This document shows, one piece after another, positions 3,614 to 62,372 of a stretch of DNA of 64,000 nucleotides. Source of the DNA: a bacterium. GTDB lineage: Bacteria > Patescibacteriota > Microgenomatia > Curtissbacterales > GWA2-41-24. The stretch lies in assembly GCA_021813945.1 (NCBI GenBank), contig JAKAJD010000001.1, positions 137,744 to 201,743 of the forward strand, in the 5' to 3' direction. The position numbers and the translations under genes were made by a program. The stretch's first letter is position 1. Every line of letters begins with the position of its first letter. The notes below the pieces were generated by a model. The model was given only the letters and a program-made list of their open reading frames with translations, ran no database searches and was not told where the DNA came from.

Positions 3614-3705
3614 AGCACGAAAGGTTTATCACCAAAGCTTCATTTTGTCAACGCAGAAACCCTGGATAAATTTTGACTTTTTTCCGGCTAATATATAATA
3701 GGACT

Positions 3706-4836
3706 GTGAAAATTGCATTGGTTCACGACGACTTTTGCCAGCAGGGTGGGGCAGAGAGCTTGTTTGCAACAATCGCGTCGATATACCCCGACGCACCCAT
3801 CTACACTTCCCTGGTCAACTGGTCAAAGCTTCCAAAATCAATTGAAAAAAGCAGGATTCATACATCTTTCATGCAAAAAATCCCTTTTGCCACAAAATTT
3901 TATAAATTACTACTCTCCCTTTATCCACTTGCATTTGAAAGCTTCAATTTTGACCGCTACGATCTTGTTCTCTCATCAACCACCAGATTTGCTAAATCCA
4001 TAGTCACCAAGCCAAAAACAACCCACGTTTCTTATCTAAACAGTGCGCCGCGGTTTTTGTGGAATCAAGATTCGCAAAATGATTATCTTCCGCGAGTCTT
4101 AAGATTTTTACTTTCATCTCTTTTTTCCTGGCTCAAGCGTTGGGACAAAGCCTCATCTTCCCGCGTTGATTTTTATATCGCTAATTCTCAAAACGTAAAA
4201 AATAAAATCAAGGAAATTTACAACCGTGAAGCCCAAGTTGTTTGCCCCTATGCCAACACAGATTTTTTCAATATTCCCAAAATCCACAATTGGGCGCTAA
4301 AAAGCCAAAATTATTTTCTTTTAGTCAGTCGTTTAGTGAAATGGAAAAAAATAGATTTGGCAATAGAAGCGGCACAAGATCTAGGCGCAAATTTAATTGT
4401 AGTCGGTGACGGCCCGGACAGAAAAAGGCTGGAAAACCTTGCTGTCAGCCGTAAGCAATCAGCAGTGAGCAACAAAATAACTTTTGCGGGCAAAGTTTCG
4501 CTGGAGGAATTGCGGAGTTATTATCAAAATTGTGTAGGATTAATTGTTACCCAGGAAGAAGATTTTGGAATCGCCCAAGTAGAAGCTCAAGCATGCGGCA
4601 AGGCAGTCATCGCCTACCAAAAGGGCGGTTCGGCTGAAACGGTTATAGACGGTAAAACCGGCATACTCTTTAAACACCAGTTGAAAGAGAGCCTAAAAGA
4701 TGCAATTGTCCGCTTCAGTAAGGTAAAATGGAAAAGCGCGGCGGTAAGGAGAAACTCATTGAAGTTTTCTAAAGCCGCCTTTACAAAAGGCTTAAGAGAT
4801 CAGGTAAACATATGGCAGAAGCAAACGATAATTTAA
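3706..4836 (+). CDS. glycosyltransferase family 4 (GT-B, RfaB-like)
   Basis: C-terminal E-x7-E motif region EDFGIAQVEAQACGKAVIAYQKGGSAETV. Probable start is GTG 3706 (VKIALVHD). The track ORF from 3673 would begin upstream of the TTGACT/TATAAT promoter elements. Confidence 0.85.
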   Translation: MKIALVHDDFCQQGGAESLFATIASIYPDAPIYTSLVNWSKLPKSIEKSRIHTSFMQKIPFATKFYKLLLSLYPLAFESFNFDRYDLVLSSTTRFAKSIVTKPKTTHVSYLNSAPRFLWNQDSQNDYLPRVLRFLLSSLFSWLKRWDKASSSRVDFYIANSQNVKNKIKEIYNREAQVVCPYANTDFFNIPKIHNWALKSQNYFLLVSRLVKWKKIDLAIEAAQDLGANLIVVGDGPDRKRLENLAVSRKQSAVSNKITFAGKVSLEELRSYYQNCVGLIVTQEEDFGIAQVEAQACGKAVIAYQKGGSAETVIDGKTGILFKHQLKESLKDAIVRFSKVKWKSAAVRRNSLKFSKAAFTKGLRDQVNIWQKQTII

Positions 4837-5915
4837 AGTTCGCCCTTTTCTGCGGAGGGTCCGGAACACGCATGTGGCCGATGTCCAGAAAAAGTCTCCC
4901 CAAACAATTCCAGCCCTTAATTGAAAACCAATCTACTTTTGAAATGATGATAAAGCGCCTATCGTCTAAATTCCCCATGCATAGCATTTTCCCAGTGACA
5001 ACCCGTGATAACGTCCAGTGGATTGTCAAACTGGCTCCCGAAATTCCGCTGGAAAATATCATAATCGAACCGGAAATGAGAGATACCGCAGCAGCAGTTG
5101 GTTTGGCAGCAGCCGTTCTAAACAAAAAATTTGACGATCCTTTGGTAGTCAGCTTATGGAGCGATCACGTCGTCAGGAACGAAAAAGAATTCATAGCAGC
5201 CATTGAACTTGCAGCAAAAACTGCCCAAAAAGAAGGTAAGTTTGTTAAAATCGGCGTCCGTCCTGCCTTTGCCAGTATTGCACTGGGTTATCTGCAGTTG
5301 GGAAAGATGCTTGGCCGCGAAAACGGAATGGCCATTTTTGAATATGTCACTCAAATCGAAAAACCTGATTACAAAGACGCAAAGCGGTTTACCGAGAGCT
5401 GGGAATACCTTTGGCACATTGGATACTGCGTTTGGTCTGCACAAAAAATGCTGGCTCTTTACGAAAAGCATTTCAAAGAGGCCTACAACTGTTTGGTAAA
5501 AATAAGTGATGCTTGGGGCACACCGAATCAAGAAGAAGTTTTAAAAAAGGAATATCCCAAAATACCTAAAACATCCGTAGACTACGCCATCTATTCCCAC
5601 CTAACGGGCGAAGACCAACTGGTTGTTTCGGCAGATTTAGGCTGGCGCGATGTGGGAACTTGGAACGAGTTAAAAGACGAAATGGCCTCAAAGCCAGAAG
5701 ATATCATAACGCAGGGTGATGTTTCCCACATTGACGTAAAAGATAGCCTTATTTACTCCACAGTTGAGAAAAAAGTAATTGCCGCAATTGGGGTTGAAGG
5801 CTTAATTGTCGTAGACACCGAAGATGCACTTTTAATTGTCCCCAAAGATAAGACTCAGGATGTTAAAAAAGTAATAGAAAAGTTAAAAGAGGAGAAAAAA
5901 GAAGACTTCCTCTAG
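4812..5915 (+). CDS. mannose-1-phosphate guanylyltransferase-like sugar nucleotidyltransferase
   Basis: N-terminus reads FALFCGGSGTRMWPMSRKSLPKQF, the ManC/GMP signature. Overlaps the GT4 stop by 25 nt. Confidence 0.75.
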   Translation: MAEANDNLKFALFCGGSGTRMWPMSRKSLPKQFQPLIENQSTFEMMIKRLSSKFPMHSIFPVTTRDNVQWIVKLAPEIPLENIIIEPEMRDTAAAVGLAAAVLNKKFDDPLVVSLWSDHVVRNEKEFIAAIELAAKTAQKEGKFVKIGVRPAFASIALGYLQLGKMLGRENGMAIFEYVTQIEKPDYKDAKRFTESWEYLWHIGYCVWSAQKMLALYEKHFKEAYNCLVKISDAWGTPNQEEVLKKEYPKIPKTSVDYAIYSHLTGEDQLVVSADLGWRDVGTWNELKDEMASKPEDIITQGDVSHIDVKDSLIYSTVEKKVIAAIGVEGLIVVDTEDALLIVPKDKTQDVKKVIEKLKEEKKEDFL

Positions 5916-31259: not shown

Positions 31260-32537
31260 ATGCCAAAAGAAAAAGTTGTCGTTGGAATAGATATAGGTTC
31301 AACAAAAGTAACTACCATAATTGCAACTTTTCTTGACGATTCTACACCCAACATTATCGGAGTTTCATCAACGCAGGCCAAAGGCCTTCGAAAGGGGCAG
31401 GTGGTAGATATTGACGAAGCTGTAGCATCAATAACCAACTCACTGGAGGCCGCAGAGCGCATGGCAGGCTACTCGGTTGGCACTGCTTTTGTTTCCGTAG
31501 ACGGTGTCAATATCGAGTCGCAAAACAGTAAAGGCGTAGTGGCGGTCGCCAATCCCCAAGGAGAAATAACAGAAGAAGATGTCGCAAGGGTAGTTGAAGC
31601 TGCCCGTGCAATTTCTCTGCCATCATCCCGAGAAATTCTCCACGTTATCCCAAGGTATTTTACGGTCGACTCTCAATCCGGCATCAAGGATCCTGTCGGC
31701 ATGAACGGTGTGCGCCTGGAAGTTGAAACCCACATCGTAACCGGTGCCGCAACAGCCCTAAGAAACATTGCCAAATGCGTAAGCCAGGTAGGGGTGGATA
31801 TAGACGGCATGGTTTTTTCGGGCCTTGCCTCCGCCTACTCAACTTTAACCGATACCGAACGCGAACTTGGTGTAATCCTTGTTGATTTCGGCGGCGGCAC
31901 AACCGATATCTCGATTTTCATAGACGGCGCCCCGGCTCACTGTGCAGTACTTCCAGTCGGAGCCCGAAACGTCACCAACGATTTGGCAATCGGCATGCGC
32001 ATTTCCCTGGATAGCGCCGAAAAAATTAAACTTGCACTTTCCAAGCCTCCCAAAATTGCAGTAGAACCGGACGAAGACGGTGAACCCAGGGACAAAAAGG
32101 AATCCGACACCTTAGACCTAGTCGGCATGGCAATCGAAGAAGACCTTCGCTCCGTTTCCAAAAAAACCTTATCGGACGGCATCATCAAACCGCGCCTTCG
32201 CGAAATCTTAAATATGGTCAAGCTCGAAATCCAAAAGACAAACCTTGCCGGCCTTACCCCATCCGGGGTAGTCATAACCGGTGGGGGAGCAGCAACATCT
32301 AATCTGGTGGAAATTGCCCGCCACGAACTGCAAATGCCCGTCCGACTCGGCATGCCCCAAGGCGCAAAAGGCTTAATTGACGAAATTGCCTCCCCCGCCT
32401 TTGCGGCAAGCTTGGGCCTCATTCTTTACGGATCCCAGTACCAGCAGGAAGACATCCGCCTGCCTCTAGTCGGAAGAATTGAAGTGAAAAATATCTTCTC
32501 CAAAGGTTTGGGGCTTATTAAGTCAATCCTTCCCTAG
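31260..32537 (+). CDS. ftsA: cell division protein FtsA
   Basis: VVGIDIGSTKV...DFGGGTTDISIF actin-fold motifs. Confidence 0.9.
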   Translation: MPKEKVVVGIDIGSTKVTTIIATFLDDSTPNIIGVSSTQAKGLRKGQVVDIDEAVASITNSLEAAERMAGYSVGTAFVSVDGVNIESQNSKGVVAVANPQGEITEEDVARVVEAARAISLPSSREILHVIPRYFTVDSQSGIKDPVGMNGVRLEVETHIVTGAATALRNIAKCVSQVGVDIDGMVFSGLASAYSTLTDTERELGVILVDFGGGTTDISIFIDGAPAHCAVLPVGARNVTNDLAIGMRISLDSAEKIKLALSKPPKIAVEPDEDGEPRDKKESDTLDLVGMAIEEDLRSVSKKTLSDGIIKPRLREILNMVKLEIQKTNLAGLTPSGVVITGGGAATSNLVEIARHELQMPVRLGMPQGAKGLIDEIASPAFAASLGLILYGSQYQQEDIRLPLVGRIEVKNIFSKGLGLIKSILP

Positions 32538-32610
32538 TGCGCTTGAAAATAAAGCCCTTCTGTGGTAAATTGTGACAGCTTTTAGTCACAGCTTTTAGCC
32601 GATAGCTTTT

Positions 32611-33720
32611 ATGCTTATAAAACCAGACGTTAACAGGTTCGCCAAAATTAAAGTTTTAGGAATTGGCGGCGGCGGAACCAACGCCCTAAACTCCATGATC
32701 ACCCAGGCACAAATTCAGGGGGTCGATTTCGTGGCGGTCAACACCGACCAGCAGCACCTTTTGGCATCTCACGCCCAAACAAAAGTGCAAATTGGCGATG
32801 GCCTCACCAAAGGGCTTGGAGCAGGAGCCGACCCGGATGTTGGCAAAAAAGCGGCAGAAGAGTCCCTCGAACACATAAAACAGGTAATCGGCGGAGCCGA
32901 CATGGTCTTTATTACCTACGGCGCCGGCGGGGGAACGGGAACAGGTGCCGGTCCGGTTATTGCCGAGCTTGCCAAAAAACTCGGTGTCCTAACGGTTGCC
33001 GTAATCACCAAACCCTTTGGTTTTGAAGGCACCAAAAGAATGGTTGTTGCCGATGAAGGCATAGAAGTGCTTCGTAATAAAGTCGACACTTTAATCGTTA
33101 TCCCTAACCAAAAGCTTTTGGAAGTAGTCGACAAAAACGTTTCACTTTTAGAAGCATTCAAACTCGCAGACTCCGTCCTTTCCCAGGGTGTCCAGGGCAT
33201 TTCCGACATCATCGTTATGCCCGGTCTTATAAATGTCGACTTTGCCGATGTTAAGGCCATTATGACCGGTGCCGGATCAACCCTTATGGGAGTTGGTATT
33301 GCAACCGGCGAAAACCGCGCTTCAACAGCCGCCCGCCAGGCAATCGCCTCACCGCTTTTGGACGCCTCAATAGAAGGCGCACGCGGACTTCTCTTTAACA
33401 TCACCGGCGGATCCGACATGACCATGAACGAGGTGGACGAAGCCGCCAAAGTCATAACCGGCATGGCCGACCCGGATGCCCAGATAATCTTCGGTGCGGC
33501 AATAGACGAAAAGCTAGTCGACCAAGTCAAAGTAACGGTTGTTGCAACCGGCTTTGACGAATCCCGCAGCCGCTACGCCCGCGTCGGCCCGATTCCTCAA
33601 GTCGAAACCCAGGACTTGTCTCAAGCTCAGCAATCCGATAGTGAAACTCCACCAGCATCAAACGGCGAAATGGACGAAGACGAATTCGACATTCCCACGT
33701 TCCTCCGCCAAATCAGATAA
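32611..33720 (+). CDS. ftsZ: cell division protein FtsZ
   Basis: GIGGGGTNALN tubulin signature, T7 loop, and a C-terminal acidic tail ending DIPTFLRQ. Confidence 0.95.
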   Translation: MLIKPDVNRFAKIKVLGIGGGGTNALNSMITQAQIQGVDFVAVNTDQQHLLASHAQTKVQIGDGLTKGLGAGADPDVGKKAAEESLEHIKQVIGGADMVFITYGAGGGTGTGAGPVIAELAKKLGVLTVAVITKPFGFEGTKRMVVADEGIEVLRNKVDTLIVIPNQKLLEVVDKNVSLLEAFKLADSVLSQGVQGISDIIVMPGLINVDFADVKAIMTGAGSTLMGVGIATGENRASTAARQAIASPLLDASIEGARGLLFNITGGSDMTMNEVDEAAKVITGMADPDAQIIFGAAIDEKLVDQVKVTVVATGFDESRSRYARVGPIPQVETQDLSQAQQSDSETPPASNGEMDEDEFDIPTFLRQIR

Positions 33721-33724
33721 TTAC

Positions 33725-33961
33725 ATGTCTATATCAATAGAAGCTTTGATAAAAATGAGGGAAGCCCTGGAAGAAGACCAGCAAAGAAGGCTGGCCGAGT
33801 TCTGTGCACGTGGACCGCAAGGTAATGTTATGCAAGAAACGCAGGTATTCTTCTTAAGTTATATGAACCCTACAGGTACAAAAATCGATTTACTCAACAA
33901 CCTTATCGAAACTGCATCCAATCCTCCAGCCGAAGTGCCCGCAGCAACCCCCGAAGCTTAA
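33725..33961 (+). CDS. small hypothetical protein downstream of ftsZ
   Basis: 78-aa ORF from the ATG 5 nt after the ftsZ stop (MSISIEALIKMREALEE...). The longer track ORF from 33539 overlaps ftsZ and is not credible. Confidence 0.45.
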   Translation: MSISIEALIKMREALEEDQQRRLAEFCARGPQGNVMQETQVFFLSYMNPTGTKIDLLNNLIETASNPPAEVPAATPEA

Positions 33962-34030
33962 AAAAAGTAAAACCGAAGCCGAGTCCTGACCCTTACGTTC
34001 CAAAAAGCAGATAAGATAAGGAAAATAATA

Positions 34031-34059
34031 TTGACAAATTAAATTTTGGGCGGTATTAT
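34031..34059 (+). promoter_or_regulatory. sigma70-like promoter TTGACA-N17-TATTAT driving the two-gene AT-rich module
   Basis: Consensus -35 at 34031-36 and -10 at 34054-59 with a 17-nt spacer. The predicted TSS lies downstream of the TTG at 34062, which favours the ATG at 34080 as start. Confidence 0.5.
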
Positions 34060-34079
34060 GCTTGAAATCACTTCAAGAA

Positions 34080-34658
34080 ATGGATAATCCTACCAAAGCA
34101 GTCATAAATCTTAGAGAAGGAGTAATAGAACTTCAAGGAAGCGAAGCCTTTGTAACAAAATATTTAGATGAATTTAAAGCAAAAATTATCAAAGAAGAAA
34201 ATCATACTTTAATATCAAGACACAATCAAGACGCTTCAAGCAAGCAGCCCGTGCACAAGAAGACAATCCAGAAGAAGCAGACAAGGGCACAAATCAAAGC
34301 GAAAACAAAAAACATCCAACCAGAAGATTTTGATATAGACGCCTCCAGTGATAAGAAAATACCCTCACTGAAAGCCTTTATTGATGAGAAAAAACCGGAC
34401 GAAGCTGCCGCTTCTAGAATTGCAACGATTGGCTTTTATATTACTAAATTAAAAAAACTACAAAATTTTTCTGAGGGTAACATCGAATTTGCTTATTTAA
34501 CACTCGACTGGAAAAGACCACTCCACATAAGACAATCTTGTATTGACGCCAAGAATAAGAAGCGTTTTCTCGAAGAAGATAATGATGATCCTGGGAAATG
34601 GAAGCTCTCAAGACTGGGAGAAATATTCGTAAATGAAAAGCTACCGCAGCAAGGGTAA
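34080..34658 (+). CDS. hypothetical protein (first gene of HEPN-associated pair), K/Q-rich linker
   Basis: AT-rich ORF. Its stop overlaps the next gene's start by 26 nt, suggesting translational coupling. No known domain. Confidence 0.55.
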   Translation: MDNPTKAVINLREGVIELQGSEAFVTKYLDEFKAKIIKEENHTLISRHNQDASSKQPVHKKTIQKKQTRAQIKAKTKNIQPEDFDIDASSDKKIPSLKAFIDEKKPDEAAASRIATIGFYITKLKKLQNFSEGNIEFAYLTLDWKRPLHIRQSCIDAKNKKRFLEEDNDDPGKWKLSRLGEIFVNEKLPQQG

Positions 34659-35415
34659 TGAAATAAGCGTAGACCTGAATTTTCTTCTAGAGAAAAAACC
34701 CGATTTTTACGAGTTAACCCAAAAGGAACAAATTAAGTATATTTGTTTTATTTACTATAAAAATACAAAAAATTCACCATTTAAGCAAAAAGACATTAAA
34801 GGGCTATTCCAAGAATTTAATTTGGTATCACCGTCACACTTTTCTGAGCATTTTGAAAGTTTTACAAAAGGAAAAGTTCCGTTACTTGTAAAAAAAACAA
34901 ATGGATATGTTGTACACCCCTCATTGGACAAAGATCTTACACTTGAATTTTTCTCTGCCGAAAAAGCTGAAAATTTTAAAAAAGAAAAGAATACGAGTTT
35001 ATTTAGTAAATACGATTTTCATCCAGCGATAAAAAAAGTTTCATTCAGGCAATTTCAGGATGGCTATTACAAGGAAGCAATTTTAAATGCTTTAGTAGAA
35101 GTCGTTGATCAAGTTAAAATTAAATCTGGGCACCCAAAAAATAATTCGGGTAAGGAATTAGACGGCGACGATTTGATGAATCAAGTTTTTGGTTGTGATA
35201 ATCAACAACCGATTGTTAGTTTTAACGATCTAGCTACAAGCCTCGATAAGGCAGAGCAAAGGGGAATAATGTACCTATTTAAAGGAATTGTTGGAGTACG
35301 AGATAAAAAAGCACATCTAAATTTCATACAAAATGACCCTCTGAAAACAATTGAGTATTTATCGTTGGCAAGTCTCTTAATGAGACTATTAGATGAAAAC
35401 TTAGCTGAGTCTTAA
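34633..35415 (+). CDS. hypothetical protein with C-terminal HEPN-like (TIGR02391/Hypoth_Ymh-type) domain
   Basis: C-terminal block AILNALVEVVDQVK...LMNQVFGC...IVSFN...GIVGVRDKKAHL contains an R-x4-H motif (RDKKAH) in a G-x-G-x-R context. This is typical of HEPN ribonuclease-type domains. Confidence 0.55.
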   Translation: MKSYRSKGNEISVDLNFLLEKKPDFYELTQKEQIKYICFIYYKNTKNSPFKQKDIKGLFQEFNLVSPSHFSEHFESFTKGKVPLLVKKTNGYVVHPSLDKDLTLEFFSAEKAENFKKEKNTSLFSKYDFHPAIKKVSFRQFQDGYYKEAILNALVEVVDQVKIKSGHPKNNSGKELDGDDLMNQVFGCDNQQPIVSFNDLATSLDKAEQRGIMYLFKGIVGVRDKKAHLNFIQNDPLKTIEYLSLASLLMRLLDENLAES

Positions 35416-35459
35416 AGCTTTATAAACTCCATTTCTGCGCGCTTTGATATAATTCCACT

Positions 35460-35861
35460 GTGAATAAAACAAAAATCAACTCCTTGGAATTTGCCCAAAG
35501 AATGGGTGCTTATTCACACGGTTACACCGTAGATGTTGGGGATTCAAAGATTATTTTTACGACCGGACAGGTCGCATTAGACAAAGAAGGAAATGTAGTT
35601 CACCCAAACGATGCAGCCAAACAAGCAGAGTTTATTTTTGAAAGCCTTAATAAAATCTTAAACGAAGCAGGCGCTTCTTTAGATGACGCTGTGAAAGCAA
35701 CAGTATATGTAACCGACATGAATGATTTTTCCAAAATTAGCGAAGTTCGGAATCAATATTTCAAAAATTCCGAACCGGTATCGACTTTAGTAGAAGTAAG
35801 CAAATTGGTCAAAGTTGGTTGTGTTTTAGAAATCGAAGTAATCGCCGTCGTAAAAAAGTAA
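35460..35861 (+). CDS. ridA: RidA/YjgF family reactive-intermediate deaminase
   Basis: AYSHGYTVD...IFTTGQVALDKEGNVV...ATVYVTDMNDF...VEVIAVV conserved blocks. GTG start sits just after an extended -10 (TGaTATAAT, 35445-35453), implying a leaderless mRNA. Confidence 0.85.
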   Translation: MNKTKINSLEFAQRMGAYSHGYTVDVGDSKIIFTTGQVALDKEGNVVHPNDAAKQAEFIFESLNKILNEAGASLDDAVKATVYVTDMNDFSKISEVRNQYFKNSEPVSTLVEVSKLVKVGCVLEIEVIAVVKK

Positions 35862-35873
35862 ATTCAGTCTCCT

Positions 35874-35895
35874 CAATTTCCGCGCCCGCGCTAGA
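35874..35895. repeat. copy 1 of 20-22-bp direct repeat TCAATTTCCGCGCCCGC(GC)TAG
   Basis: Identical core to 36746-36765. Both copies sit at the 3' ends of adjacent minus-strand genes. Confidence 0.6.
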
Positions 35896-36727
35896 CTAAG
35901 TAGCTTGCGGCCATAATCATTTCGCCGCGGGGGTCGAAACCCATGTCAAGAATTCGATCTGCAATGCGGTAATTTAATTTTACAGTGCTTAAAAGAATGC
36001 CTTTAACAGGAGTGCCCCTTAATTCTGAAACTTGGGTCCCAATTCTTTCTAATCTTTCCCTGAATATTTCATTAAAGATCTCATTAGGCAATCTGCCTTC
36101 AGAAGCATTTCTCAAAGTGCTAACTTCACCGGTAAAACCATCCATGTCACGCGCTTTCCTGAAATAATCTCGTAAATCAACCGGTTTTCTAACGTGCGCA
36201 ACATAAGCAAGGCCCTCTATATCACCTTCCATTGCTCTGTTTAACATTATTTTGCCATCCGAAACGGCTAAAGGTACCGAATCTTCAACTGTCGTTTTAC
36301 CAGCCTGCTCTGCAATTGGCTGCTCGGCGAAAGTAGAATCGACCATAATAACTGGAAAAATAAACACGTTTGAAGCATATGCAGTTGTTTCCAATTGACT
36401 TCGAACAACCTCAGCCTCTACCTGGGCAACCTGTCTTCCTTTTAGCTCGGGAACAGTTGGTAGGTCAGTATTTCTTGGGTTGGAAGCAGTGTTCCTTTGG
36501 GAGGTGACATGGGGTGCGCCTTTCAAAACAACACCGCGAATAACATCGTATTCCGGCGCAACAGGCATTTCTCGGAAAGCAAGTTGGGCATTCCAATACT
36601 TTTCGTCGGGCCCGTATACCGTTCGGCCTTTATCGTCCTTTTTTATAACGAAACCCGGAATTTGTGGCTGTCCTTCTATATCTTTAGGCATGGTGGAAAC
36701 TTTACTCTCGAACAGGCTCAATGTCAA
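35891..36727 (-). CDS. hypothetical protein (higher-GC island gene 3)
   Basis: 278-aa ORF with TTG start and no recognised domain. Read through its stop, the frame would continue RGRGN*, mirroring the C-terminus of the next gene. Confidence 0.55.
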   Translation of the reverse strand: MTLSLFESKVSTMPKDIEGQPQIPGFVIKKDDKGRTVYGPDEKYWNAQLAFREMPVAPEYDVIRGVVLKGAPHVTSQRNTASNPRNTDLPTVPELKGRQVAQVEAEVVRSQLETTAYASNVFIFPVIMVDSTFAEQPIAEQAGKTTVEDSVPLAVSDGKIMLNRAMEGDIEGLAYVAHVRKPVDLRDYFRKARDMDGFTGEVSTLRNASEGRLPNEIFNEIFRERLERIGTQVSELRGTPVKGILLSTVKLNYRIADRILDMGFDPRGEMIMAASYLV

Positions 36728-36745
36728 ATTCTAGCGTACAGTTTA

Positions 36746-36765
36746 TCAATTTCCGCGCCCGCTAG
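36746..36765. repeat. copy 2 of direct repeat TCAATTTCCGCGCCCGCTAG (encodes C-terminal ASGRGN* of the 232-aa protein)
   Basis: Matches 35874-35895. Confidence 0.6.
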
Positions 36766-37444
36766 CTAATAATTGACGCCTCGACCTGCCCGACAAAATA
36801 CCAACATCTAAAAAATCCCGATCGTGAGGGCTTAGCCCTTCAAGGGAATTGACTAAGTCCTCATAGGCTTTTATGGAATCCGAAAGATCAGCGGCAGGGA
36901 AGTGCTCAAGCCCTACCTTTAACATAACTCCGAAGGTTCGAACAGGTGAGATTAAAGCCCTAGAAGGTACTGGGTAAGTACAGTGAGCGATAAAAGGGTC
37001 TACATCCACCAGATAAACATTTTCTTCACCCTCTCCAATCCTATGGCCGTACATAAATTGGTCAAACCTAAGGTCGGCAAGAAAAGTGGTGCGGTCGCGA
37101 TTTTTGTCCCGGAAATATCCCGCCAAGCCCCGATAAAAAGCGTTAAGTTTGGCATCAGAAATATCTGTTGCGTCCATAAGCTGCTGTCCATGGATTCTAT
37201 CCACAATTGTCATTATTCCGGCTGTAGTTCTAACTAATCTGATTTCCGGCACGTTAACCCCATAACTGGCAAGCTTTTTATGTTCGGCTTGGCCGCGCGC
37301 ATAGTAGTCTGTATCAAACTCTTGGCCCAAAAACGGCATTCTTACTACAAAACGCGGCTCTGCCGCAAAACCCCTTACTTTAATGGTTCTTGGCAACGTG
37401 TCCAGAACCGGGGCTAAGAAAGGTAGCTTATCAATTTCAAGCAT
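36746..37444 (-). CDS. hypothetical protein, possibly protein-kinase-like/phosphotransferase fold
   Basis: The segment LADLRFDQFMYG...NVYLVDVDPF resembles the catalytic-loop and DFG-like regions of APH/kinase-like proteins. This is a weak call. Confidence 0.5.
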   Translation of the reverse strand: MLEIDKLPFLAPVLDTLPRTIKVRGFAAEPRFVVRMPFLGQEFDTDYYARGQAEHKKLASYGVNVPEIRLVRTTAGIMTIVDRIHGQQLMDATDISDAKLNAFYRGLAGYFRDKNRDRTTFLADLRFDQFMYGHRIGEGEENVYLVDVDPFIAHCTYPVPSRALISPVRTFGVMLKVGLEHFPAADLSDSIKAYEDLVNSLEGLSPHDRDFLDVGILSGRSRRQLLASGRGN

Positions 37445-37474
37445 GTTGCGGATTATATCAAAATTTGAATATTA

Positions 37475-38251
37475 CTAGTTTTCCTCGCGGGCCGCTTTTA
37501 TTTTCTTAATCTCTTGGTTTAAATATGCTACTCTAGTAGGGTGTAAAACTACCGTTTCTCCAAAGCCAAGAGATTTGCCGTCTCTAGAAAAAAATTCACA
37601 TTTTCCAAAAGACCAAGTCCCAGAAACTGCACCTTCCGGGGGAATCACACAACTGACAAGATCCACAAAAAATGGTTCTCTGCCCTGGTCGATTAAAGCT
37701 TCAAGATCCAAATCCTTACCGCCTTTAGCATCGCTCTGCTCAGCTCCAAACATAATTTGCGCAAATCTCTCCCTGGGTTTCAGCCGCTTTTTATTAGCAA
37801 GAAGTTCTGGCACTTGCCCAATTTTTAGGCTGTAATCATGTGCAGTGCCTTGGCTTGGCATTAACGCGGAACGTACATTAAATAAAAGCCCCTTCCTCTT
37901 TTTTGTATCCAGGGCCTGTAGAAATTCAACCCACGCTTCAGGTGTAAGTGGCAAAGAATCTATAGCTTCGACGCTTCTGCCTACCTCTGCTTTAATTTCT
38001 GCGGTATTTGGATTTTTATGCCTAATAGCATAATGATAAGCATATCGTACAGCTGTCTTTTCGGCTTTAATTGCGCGTTCGTCCCAAAGTATCAAAGAGG
38101 CCAGGGGAGTTTCGGGATCCAAAGTTGAAATAACTGCTCCTGCGGCACGTGCAAGTTCGTTTGTGATGATATGTTCGGAAGCTTCCTCTGGTACAGGTTT
38201 ACCAGAATCCCTGTCTGTCATGCGCTGGATTGTACCACTCGATCCGAGCAA
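37475..38251 (-). CDS. hypothetical protein (higher-GC island gene 1)
   Basis: 258 aa with no known domain. Tightly spaced with the downstream genes on the same strand. Confidence 0.55.
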   Translation of the reverse strand: MLGSSGTIQRMTDRDSGKPVPEEASEHIITNELARAAGAVISTLDPETPLASLILWDERAIKAEKTAVRYAYHYAIRHKNPNTAEIKAEVGRSVEAIDSLPLTPEAWVEFLQALDTKKRKGLLFNVRSALMPSQGTAHDYSLKIGQVPELLANKKRLKPRERFAQIMFGAEQSDAKGGKDLDLEALIDQGREPFFVDLVSCVIPPEGAVSGTWSFGKCEFFSRDGKSLGFGETVVLHPTRVAYLNQEIKKIKAAREEN

Positions 38252-62281: not shown

Positions 62282-62355
62282 GGAGTTGTAGCTCAGCCGG
62301 TTAGAGCGTTCCGTTCACATCGGAAAGGTCACAGGTTCGAGTCCTGTCAACTCCA
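62282..62355 (+). tRNA. tRNA-Val (anticodon CAC)
   Basis: 74-nt cloverleaf: acceptor GGAGTTG/CAACTCC, D-arm GCTC-AGCCGGTTA-GAGC, anticodon stem TTCCG/CGGAA with loop TTCACAT, T-arm ACAGG-TTCGAGT-CCTGT. CCA is not encoded. Confidence 0.85.
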
Positions 62356-62372
62356 CACTAAAATAATAAAAA

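Follow-up and report, generated by a model that had tools for sequence, protein, structure and literature searches.

A two-gene module downstream of ftsZ

The window analyzed here, a 64,000-nucleotide stretch of contig JAKAJD010000001.1 from a bacterium of the Curtissbacterales (Patescibacteriota), contains two overlapping open reading frames (ORFs) on the forward strand, ORF1 and ORF2, in the gene order ftsZ, 78-aa ORF, ORF1–ORF2 pair, ridA (Table 1). ORF2 encodes a predicted effector in which a winged helix is joined to a HEPN domain of the Ymh family with an intact Rx4H site, and ORF1, which appears to use the same promoter and overlaps ORF2 by 26 nt, encodes its putative dedicated partner. 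An earlier note on this locus, made from the sequence alone, had proposed the coordinates, the overlap and a near-consensus promoter belonging to the pair, and the ORF listing, the raw sequence and a promoter scan agree with it on all of these. Its placement of the pair directly after the dcw cluster holds in that the pair follows ftsZ, but the 78-aa ORF intervenes.

Some gene callers start ORF1 at an upstream TTG at 34062, which would give 198 aa; we place the start at the ATG (192 aa) because homologs begin at the equivalent of MDNPTK. The sigma-70-like promoter upstream of this ATG is the sole 11/12 match to the consensus in the interval 33500–36000, in which the other seven matches reach 9/12 and the total of eight is close to the 5.8 expected from shuffles. 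Promoters resembling it lie directly upstream of the partner gene in five related loci (L004, L009, L011, L013 and L026; L numbers are our locus handles). No terminator-like site was found on the + strand between ORF2 and ridA. With adjacent co-directional genes, a single strong promoter match, the overlap and an internal Shine–Dalgarno-like site, the locus has the layout of a type II toxin–antitoxin module, and this layout is also present in related loci.

Table 1 Features of the ORF1–ORF2 locus and of related loci (window positions unless another sequence is named)
Feature	Position	Strand	Basis or remark
78-aa ORF directly after ftsZ, between ftsZ and the pair	33725–33961
Sigma-70-like promoter, TTGACA-N17-TATTAT	34031–34059	+	Promoter scan; 21 nt upstream of the ORF1 ATG
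Inverted repeat CTTGAA-N5-TTCAAG, between the –10 hexamer and the ORF1 start	34061–34077	.	Possible operator, weak evidence
ORF1, partner protein, 192 aa from ATG	34080–34658	+	ORF listing and raw sequence
ORF1 N-terminal motif, aa 1–42 (strands 6–10 and 15–19, helix 22–42)	34080–34205	+	AlphaFold2 model
ORF1 disordered K/Q/S-rich linker, aa 43–96, isoelectric point (pI) 10.0	34206–34367	+	AlphaFold2 model, composition
ORF1 predicted C-terminal winged helix, aa 97–187	34368–34640	+	AlphaFold2 model, predicted local distance difference test score (pLDDT) ~95
Direct-repeat copy 1, encoding F-I-D-E-K-K-P-D, start of ORF1 winged helix	34377–34399	+	Repeat search
Shine–Dalgarno-like GGGAGA for ORF2, within the 3′ end of ORF1	34616–34621	+	11 nt before the ATG at 34633
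ORF2, predicted effector, 260 aa	34633–35415	+	ORF listing and raw sequence
Direct-repeat copy 2, encoding F-L-L-E-K-K-P-D, before ORF2 winged helix	34681–34703	+	Repeat search
ORF2 predicted N-terminal winged helix, aa 30–94 (H-b-H-H-b-b)	34720–34914	+	AlphaFold2 model
ORF2 Ymh/TIGR02391 HEPN domain, aa 128–257	35014–35403	+
Catalytic-type motif R223-D-K-K-A-H228 (Rx4H)	35299–35316	+	Alignment of homologs
L004 (Levybacteria)			Pair near ychF and rpsF
L007			Pair directly after an EcoRI-like methylase and a GmrSD/HNH gene
L011, L012			Pair between a serine resolvase and TraG-like and relaxase genes
L013			Pair near a prolyl-tRNA-synthetase-like gene (Pfam tRNA-synt_2b) and RecO
L142 (Ralstonia solanacearum Po82 megaplasmid)	3638–5034 of the locus (NC_017575.1 ~126404–127800)		217-aa ORF1-like gene and 248-aa winged-helix/Rx4H protein

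ORF2 joins a predicted winged helix to a HEPN domain

The C-terminal domain of ORF2 matches PF09509 (Hypoth_Ymh) at 78.3 bits (cut-off 25; ORF2 residues 128–253, profile positions 2–119 of 119) and NCBIfam TIGR02391 at 51.4 bits (cut-off 39.45). The Rx4H site defines HEPN ribonucleases, and ORF2 contains it within GIVGVRDKKAHL, with R223 and H228. The pattern R[DN]x3H is kept in all 120 of the 120 best ORF2 homologs, and N152, E156, E208-Q-R-G211, R223, K226, A227 and H228 are invariant in 29 aligned homologs. The AlphaFold2 model (pLDDT of 89.8) consists of a winged helix, a helical connector and a helical C-terminal domain, whose predicted all-α fold resembles solved HEPN domains; the HEPN/Ymh identity that the earlier note had read from the C terminus is thus upheld by both profiles and by the predicted fold. 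A sequence search of the PDB with ORF2 and with its family profile returned no solved relatives. We predict from these features that ORF2 is an RNA-cutting toxin. Its 434 homologs come nearly all from metagenome-assembled genomes of Patescibacteria.

The HEPN domain is strikingly conserved. Between the window protein and a second type of homolog from other lineages of the Candidate Phyla Radiation (CPR), described below as type B, the domain is 76–84% identical in amino acid sequence. Codon positions 1 and 2 are 82–87% identical and third positions only 42–49%, which is near saturation, and the divergence is therefore old and purifying selection very strong. For comparison, the FtsZ proteins of the metagenomic relatives are 50–65% identical to that of the window. 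N-domains and partners have been exchanged while the HEPN domain has stayed near-constant, and its near-frozen sequence is an evolutionary puzzle.

ORF1 belongs to a large unnamed family

In its AlphaFold2 model (overall pLDDT of 81), ORF1 carries an N-terminal hairpin/helix motif and a C-terminal winged helix separated by a disordered linker, with pLDDT below 50 at aa 42–61. This linker is the K/Q-rich one of the earlier note. The note's statement that ORF1 has no known domain is correct for the libraries, as Pfam, NCBIfam, PADLOC and PHROGs all returned no match, but structure prediction finds a winged helix; likewise, the regions that it had left unassigned, all of ORF1 and the N terminus of ORF2, both appear from the models to hold winged helices. 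Searches of PDB sequences with ORF1 and with its family profile gave no match.

A word-index search found six relatives of ORF1 and a profile search 34. An exhaustive hidden Markov model search recovered at least 3,495 representatives (50% clustering level) at E ≤ 1e-3, of which 1,780 remained at E ≤ 1e-10 and 507 at E ≤ 1e-30. Given this number and the lack of any library match, ORF1 belongs to a large unnamed family. Its members are mostly 175–220 aa long, and the longer ones have no informative Pfam domains that would point to fused architectures. The linker varies in length and sequence across the family, and E17 and G20 are nearly invariant. Motifs analogous to the ORF1 hairpin/helix also open the partners of type-B and Ralstonia loci.

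Partner and effector probably share a winged helix

Profile–profile comparison with hhalign aligned the C-domain of ORF1 with the N-domain of ORF2 over 59 columns (E = 3.8e-4, probability 36%). The two winged helices also have a common lead-in, F-x-x-E-K-K-P-D, which corresponds to a direct repeat in the DNA that matches at 18 of 23 nt. In six other loci (L017, L019, L020, L021, L029 and L030), the partner matches the N-domain of its own HEPN protein by BLAST, with E values from 1e-13 to 1e-4. On this sequence evidence, the winged helices of ORF1 and ORF2 are probably paralogs.

The type-B CPR homologs of ORF2 are ~226 aa long and have a different N-domain; they make up 89 of the 120 best matches, compared with 12 of 120 for the type found in the window. 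Their partners are either a single protein of 276–287 aa or a set of two or three small ones. There is no one-to-one correspondence between partner type and the N-domain type of the effector, and we therefore rejected strict co-variation of the two.

Type-B loci also bear on regulation. At the window's promoter, the inverted repeat between the –10 hexamer and ORF1 was not significant on its own against shuffles (p = 0.28), which leaves it a weak candidate operator. At the level of the family, promoter-proximal palindromes reached a combined p = 0.003. A TACA-N1-3-TGTA palindrome is conserved in the –35/–10 spacer of near-consensus promoters (TTGACn-N16-17-TATAAT) in L009, L011, L026 and L027, ~20–40 nt upstream of the partner start codons. 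This palindrome is a candidate operator of type-B cassettes, and the promoter-spacer palindromes of these sister loci suggest autoregulation. For the DNA-binding and operator features of a type II toxin–antitoxin module, the evidence thus consists of the predicted winged helix in ORF1 and the sister-locus palindromes.

ORF1-like genes accompany other putative effectors

We sampled six genes of the ORF1 family that were selected independently of Ymh. Four of them (L130, L136, L140 and the Ralstonia locus L142) are followed, at a gap of ≤4 nt, by a gene for a ~250-aa protein with an Rx4-6H motif; one precedes a YgjP-like metallopeptidase gene beside a methylase, and one (L134) stands alone. The N-domains of the L130 and L142 proteins are homologous to that of ORF2 (probability 96.7%, E = 4.6e-10). 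Their C-domains show weak similarity to the HEPN system PD-T7-3, and hhalign comparison with Ymh was not significant, so we class them as non-Ymh. For the downstream proteins of L136 and L140, profile comparison with Ymh was not significant, and the HEPN call rests on the motif. These comparisons suggest that, across bacteria, the partner and the winged helix are retained as a combination in which the RNase domain is replaced.

L130 is a metagenome locus (precomputed entry PF27235 AF_1680). We dropped a match of L130 to the PDB entry 'Dandelion-hepn', which was marginal (E of 0.13–0.36) and for which no literature was found. The L142 genes overlap by 4 nt, and the pair is unannotated in the PLSDB table; it adjoins remnants of insertion sequences and an 877-aa NB-ARC/TPR protein whose N terminus has an RNKTRGH motif. 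L140 adjoins a phage capsid gene. L136 (4157–6344) consists of four co-directional genes encoding 134, 140, 198 (the ORF1-like protein) and 247 aa. The 247-aa protein has an N-terminal FRNNRDSAH, and its C-terminal region is possibly a winged helix, in which case the domain order would be the reverse of that in ORF2. At L132/L133 (3172–6144), the ORF1-family gene lies between genes for an N6_N4 methyltransferase and a DUF6996/DUF6997 protein on one side and the YgjP-like metallopeptidase on the other, with a PD-(D/E)XK gene nearby. The YgjP-like protein may be a different effector of the ORF1 partner family.

The pair recurs in many genomic neighborhoods

A co-directional partner gene lies immediately upstream of the Ymh gene in nearly every locus that we examined. 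In the clearest loci the spacing ranges between a 26-nt overlap and a gap of 15 nt; usually the genes overlap or lie within a few tens of nucleotides of each other, and at some Ymh loci the partner is split or represented by several genes. At least ten independent neighborhoods, from different phyla, show the pairing with overlaps or minimal gaps, which supports the view that the pair behaves as a conserved overlapping unit that moves between neighborhoods. Using patterns specific to the window's own subfamily, we found 30 loci among 185,579 species genomes. Most belong to Patescibacteria (Levy-, Curtiss-, Woese-, Paceibacterota, Sungii-, Peregrini- and Staskawiczbacteria), with a few in Dehalococcoidia and Acidobacteria. 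Plasmids contained only distant Ymh domains, at ~33% identity. IMG/VR viral contigs and INPHARED phages contained no relatives of ORF1 or ORF2, and we rejected a phage or viral origin accordingly.

The pair is accessory to its surroundings

At a GC content of 0.338, compared with a window mean of 0.413 (s.d. 0.026), the pair is the lowest-GC stretch of the window: 0.2% of same-size intervals are equally low, and all of these overlap the pair. The earlier note had described the pair as more AT-rich than both flanks. The contrast is strong with ftsA and ftsZ (0.50–0.52; ftsZ alone 0.52) and only slight with ridA, which at 0.373 is nearly equal to ORF1 (0.366).

The pair is present on every contig with an identical FtsZ. 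Neither gene was found near ftsZ in any of 80 loci whose FtsZ is 50–89% identical, and in the four closest relatives DNA similarity of 72–76% ends at the ftsZ stop codon (window position 33720). This loss of ftsZ-anchored synteny supports both accessory status and a plastic region. We consider the pair accessory because it has the lowest GC content in the window, is absent from these 80 relatives and lies where synteny ends.

Horizontal acquisition by insertion, as proposed in the earlier note, is a separate matter. We found no empty site in the FtsZ-anchored relatives and no clean insertion junction, and insertion after ftsZ is for this reason only circumstantial. No tRNA gene or flanking direct repeats bracket the pair. 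The sole RNA gene detected by Rfam and ARAGORN in the window, a tRNA-Val (CAC) at 62282–62356, is far from the pair and therefore provides no integration landmark for it.

Relation to known systems

By sequence, ORF2 is a member of the Ymh/TIGR02391 (PF09509) HEPN family, with scores above both cut-offs, the Rx4H motif and a HEPN-like helical fold. An N-terminal winged helix combined with a dedicated upstream winged-helix partner, as in ORF1–ORF2, is not among the arrangements given for this family by Anantharaman et al. 2013 (PMC3710099), and the CPR branch is unusually conserved. From the same survey comes a link between RiboL-PSP and HEPN that would connect ridA to the pair. We rejected such a link: the adjacency is unique to this genome, and the other 54 Ymh/ORF1 loci have no RidA homolog.

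PADLOC matched PD-Lambda-3_B to ORF2 residues 144–256 (E = 5.8e-9), but only through profile positions 157–263 of 270, the HEPN part. PD-Lambda-3 is described as a two-gene abortive-infection system of Escherichia coli (Vassallo et al. 2022, cited in 10.1101/2025.11.03.685801, PMC10952713). PD-Lambda-3_A had no match to ORF1 at E ≤ 1, and the other neighbors are ftsZ, the 78-aa ORF and ridA. A review links this system to a PD-(D/E)XK nuclease domain, and the ORF1 partner would thus be of a different kind. Because the A component is missing and the B match is limited to the HEPN part, we do not assign the pair to PD-Lambda-3. PADLOC also matched Aga_HEPN to ORF2 at the level of the domain (E = 7.4e-9). 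There is no adjacent Argonaute: among the called neighbors, Pfam identifies dcw genes, ridA, EamA and RND components, and the unassigned ones, at 78–266 aa, are too short.

Two systems offer mechanistic rather than sequence parallels. RnlA–RnlB and LsoA–LsoB likewise combine a HEPN RNase bearing additional N-terminal domains with a small controller from the same operon, and they act in anti-phage defense. RnlA is inactive unless it forms the canonical HEPN dimer, which is also where its antitoxin acts (PMC8266594); this makes it a precedent for mechanism. The differences are that no sequence relationship is detectable, that the gene order is reversed, with the partner first in our pair, and that ORF1 is a predicted winged-helix protein with a domain in common with its effector. 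HepT–MntA is similar in that its operon also has two genes, one for a small HEPN RNase toxin and, upstream of it, one for a neutralizing partner. MntA is described in PMC7641770 as a nucleotidyltransferase that chemically modifies the HepT toxin. ORF1 has no nucleotidyltransferase domain by Pfam or NCBIfam profile or by predicted fold, and the pair is therefore not a HEPN/MNT system.

Also close to the pair are the sister cassettes of L130 and Ralstonia L142, which have the same partner family, an N-terminal winged helix of the ORF2 type and genes 4 nt apart or overlapping by 4 nt, and which differ in their non-Ymh C-terminal domain. By analogy, the pair would in its working be most like a HEPN toxin–antitoxin or abortive-infection pair.

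Discussion

Our preferred interpretation, to which we give a probability of about 0.6, is that the two genes make up an accessory conflict cassette of the toxin–antitoxin or abortive-infection kind, composed of a HEPN RNase and a winged-helix partner. Toxicity, neutralization, phage defense and the mechanism of control are what we infer for it. In a resting cell, the partner would pair with the effector through the matching winged helices, the hairpin motif or both, so that the HEPN domains could neither form nor expose the canonical dimer needed for activity; its winged helix may also repress the common promoter. Were the partner lost or titrated, possibly through proteolysis of the disordered linker or by an invading element, the HEPN dimer would become active and cut cellular RNA, which would halt growth of the infected or plasmid-free cell.

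Several observations weigh against this interpretation. The paralogy of the winged helices within the window pair rests on an hhalign match of 36% probability, and partner and effector N-domain types do not correspond one-to-one. ORF1 is basic (pI 9.3), unlike many acidic antitoxins, and the inverted repeat at its own promoter is not significant. About half of the neighborhoods consist of housekeeping genes, and the viral and phage collections hold no relatives. One sampled ORF1-family gene precedes a metallopeptidase gene and another stands alone. Toxins are generally expected to evolve fast, and purifying selection on the HEPN domain is unusually strong for a presumed toxin. The earlier note had named two results that would speak against its toxin or defense reading: failure of the C-terminal domain to match HEPN, and housekeeping-like conservation of both genes at this position. 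The domain does match, and the position is not conserved in relatives; the HEPN domain does, however, show housekeeping-like purifying selection, which the note had not foreseen. As far as sequence analysis reaches, the reading of the note is supported.

This conservation also speaks for a different account, in which the pair would have no role in conflict but would serve RNA processing or regulation specific to CPR lineages, with ORF2 as an RNase guided by its winged helix and ORF1 as a cofactor or transcriptional regulator. A HEPN domain that is 76–84% identical across deeply diverged CPR lineages with near-saturated synonymous sites, set against an FtsZ identity of 50–65% between the window and its metagenomic relatives, would suit such a role, as would the position of several loci among housekeeping genes (dcw, ychF/rpsF, proS and infB) and the lack of relatives in the phage and viral collections searched. 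We nevertheless consider it improbable: the distribution is sporadic, at 30 loci in the pattern scan of 185,579 species genomes; no position is conserved, and the ftsZ flank of the closest relatives lacks the pair; its GC content is the lowest in the window; some loci adjoin restriction–modification and mobile-element genes; and the effector domain is exchanged in sister systems. That ORF1 and ORF2 are mere neighbors, a stand-alone winged-helix transcription factor and a solo Ymh protein that overlap incidentally, seems to us highly improbable, and we disfavor it. Solo Ymh proteins are known (PMC3710099), and the isolated gene at L134 shows that ORF1-like genes can occur alone, but the pairing recurs too widely, in at least ten independent neighborhoods and across phyla, and the partners have a domain in common with the effector.

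A defense role could also take another form, in which the basic linker and winged helix of ORF1 would let it sense a phage protein or foreign nucleic acid, and ORF1 would recruit or activate the HEPN protein through the matching winged helices. ORF1 is basic, and the model gives it a linker and a winged helix that both resemble nucleic-acid binders. Partners that vary, as fused or split winged-helix sets, beside a near-constant HEPN domain form the pattern expected of fast-evolving sensors with a fixed effector. Some loci adjoin restriction–modification genes, the NB-ARC/TPR protein or the phage capsid gene, and PD-Lambda-3, which has a Ymh-type domain in common with ORF2, is described as an abortive-infection system. 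We judge this arrangement unlikely: a small partner that comes first and overlaps its effector, together with promoter-proximal palindromes, fits classical type II toxin–antitoxin autoregulation, and no NTPase or other signaling domain is present.

A broader proposal can be entertained tentatively. The pair may represent an uncatalogued, widespread defense or addiction family, extending from CPR to Ralstonia, in which the partner carries a decoy copy of the effector's winged helix along with a conserved hairpin motif and gates dimerization of an exchangeable HEPN RNase. The CPR branch, with its near-frozen Ymh domain, might then supply these reduced-genome bacteria with one of their principal RNA-targeting immune effectors.

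Cas13, Csm6, RnlA, HepT and many abortive-infection systems use HEPN RNases as effectors, and for every one of them the central question is how the RNase is silenced. The cassette suggests a directly testable principle of control, namely a partner that shares a domain with its effector. The libraries and literature that we searched describe neither the ORF1 partner family nor the shared-domain logic nor the swapping of effector domains, and the literature searched contained nothing linking HEPN systems to CPR/Patescibacteria. With the cassette, these bacteria acquire a candidate RNA-targeting conflict system. Because Pfam, NCBIfam, PADLOC v2 and PHROGs contain no model of the partner family, defense annotation misses the partner and the pair has gone unreported as a system. 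The Ralstonia solanacearum Po82 pair provides a cultivable model for experiments that can hardly be done in uncultured CPR organisms.

Other features of the surrounding region

The GC content changes unusually sharply within the dcw cluster. ftsA and ftsZ (31260–33720) have a GC content of 0.50–0.52 and a GC content at third codon positions of 0.50–0.54, compared with a window average of 0.41 and with 0.36 in the adjoining ftsQ. No Pfam model matches the 78-aa ORF at 33725–33961, and the metagenome scan turned up no relatives of it; the call in strains L048 and L049 is shorter, at 68 aa.

Downstream of ridA, three consecutive genes on the – strand (35891–38251) encode ~266, 232 and 248 aa. They have no Pfam or PHROG match, are not paralogs of each other and are missing from strain L048. 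A perfect 17-nt direct repeat, TCAATTTCCGCGCCCGC, at 35873–35889 and 36746–36762 flanks the gene of unknown function that encodes 266 aa, and a copy is also found in L048 at 4039–4055. L048 is 99.85% identical to the window over 31836–35889, diverges exactly past the first copy of the repeat and has a Vut_1 gene instead. The region just after ridA varies between strains, and the 17-mer seems to be a boundary of recombination within it.

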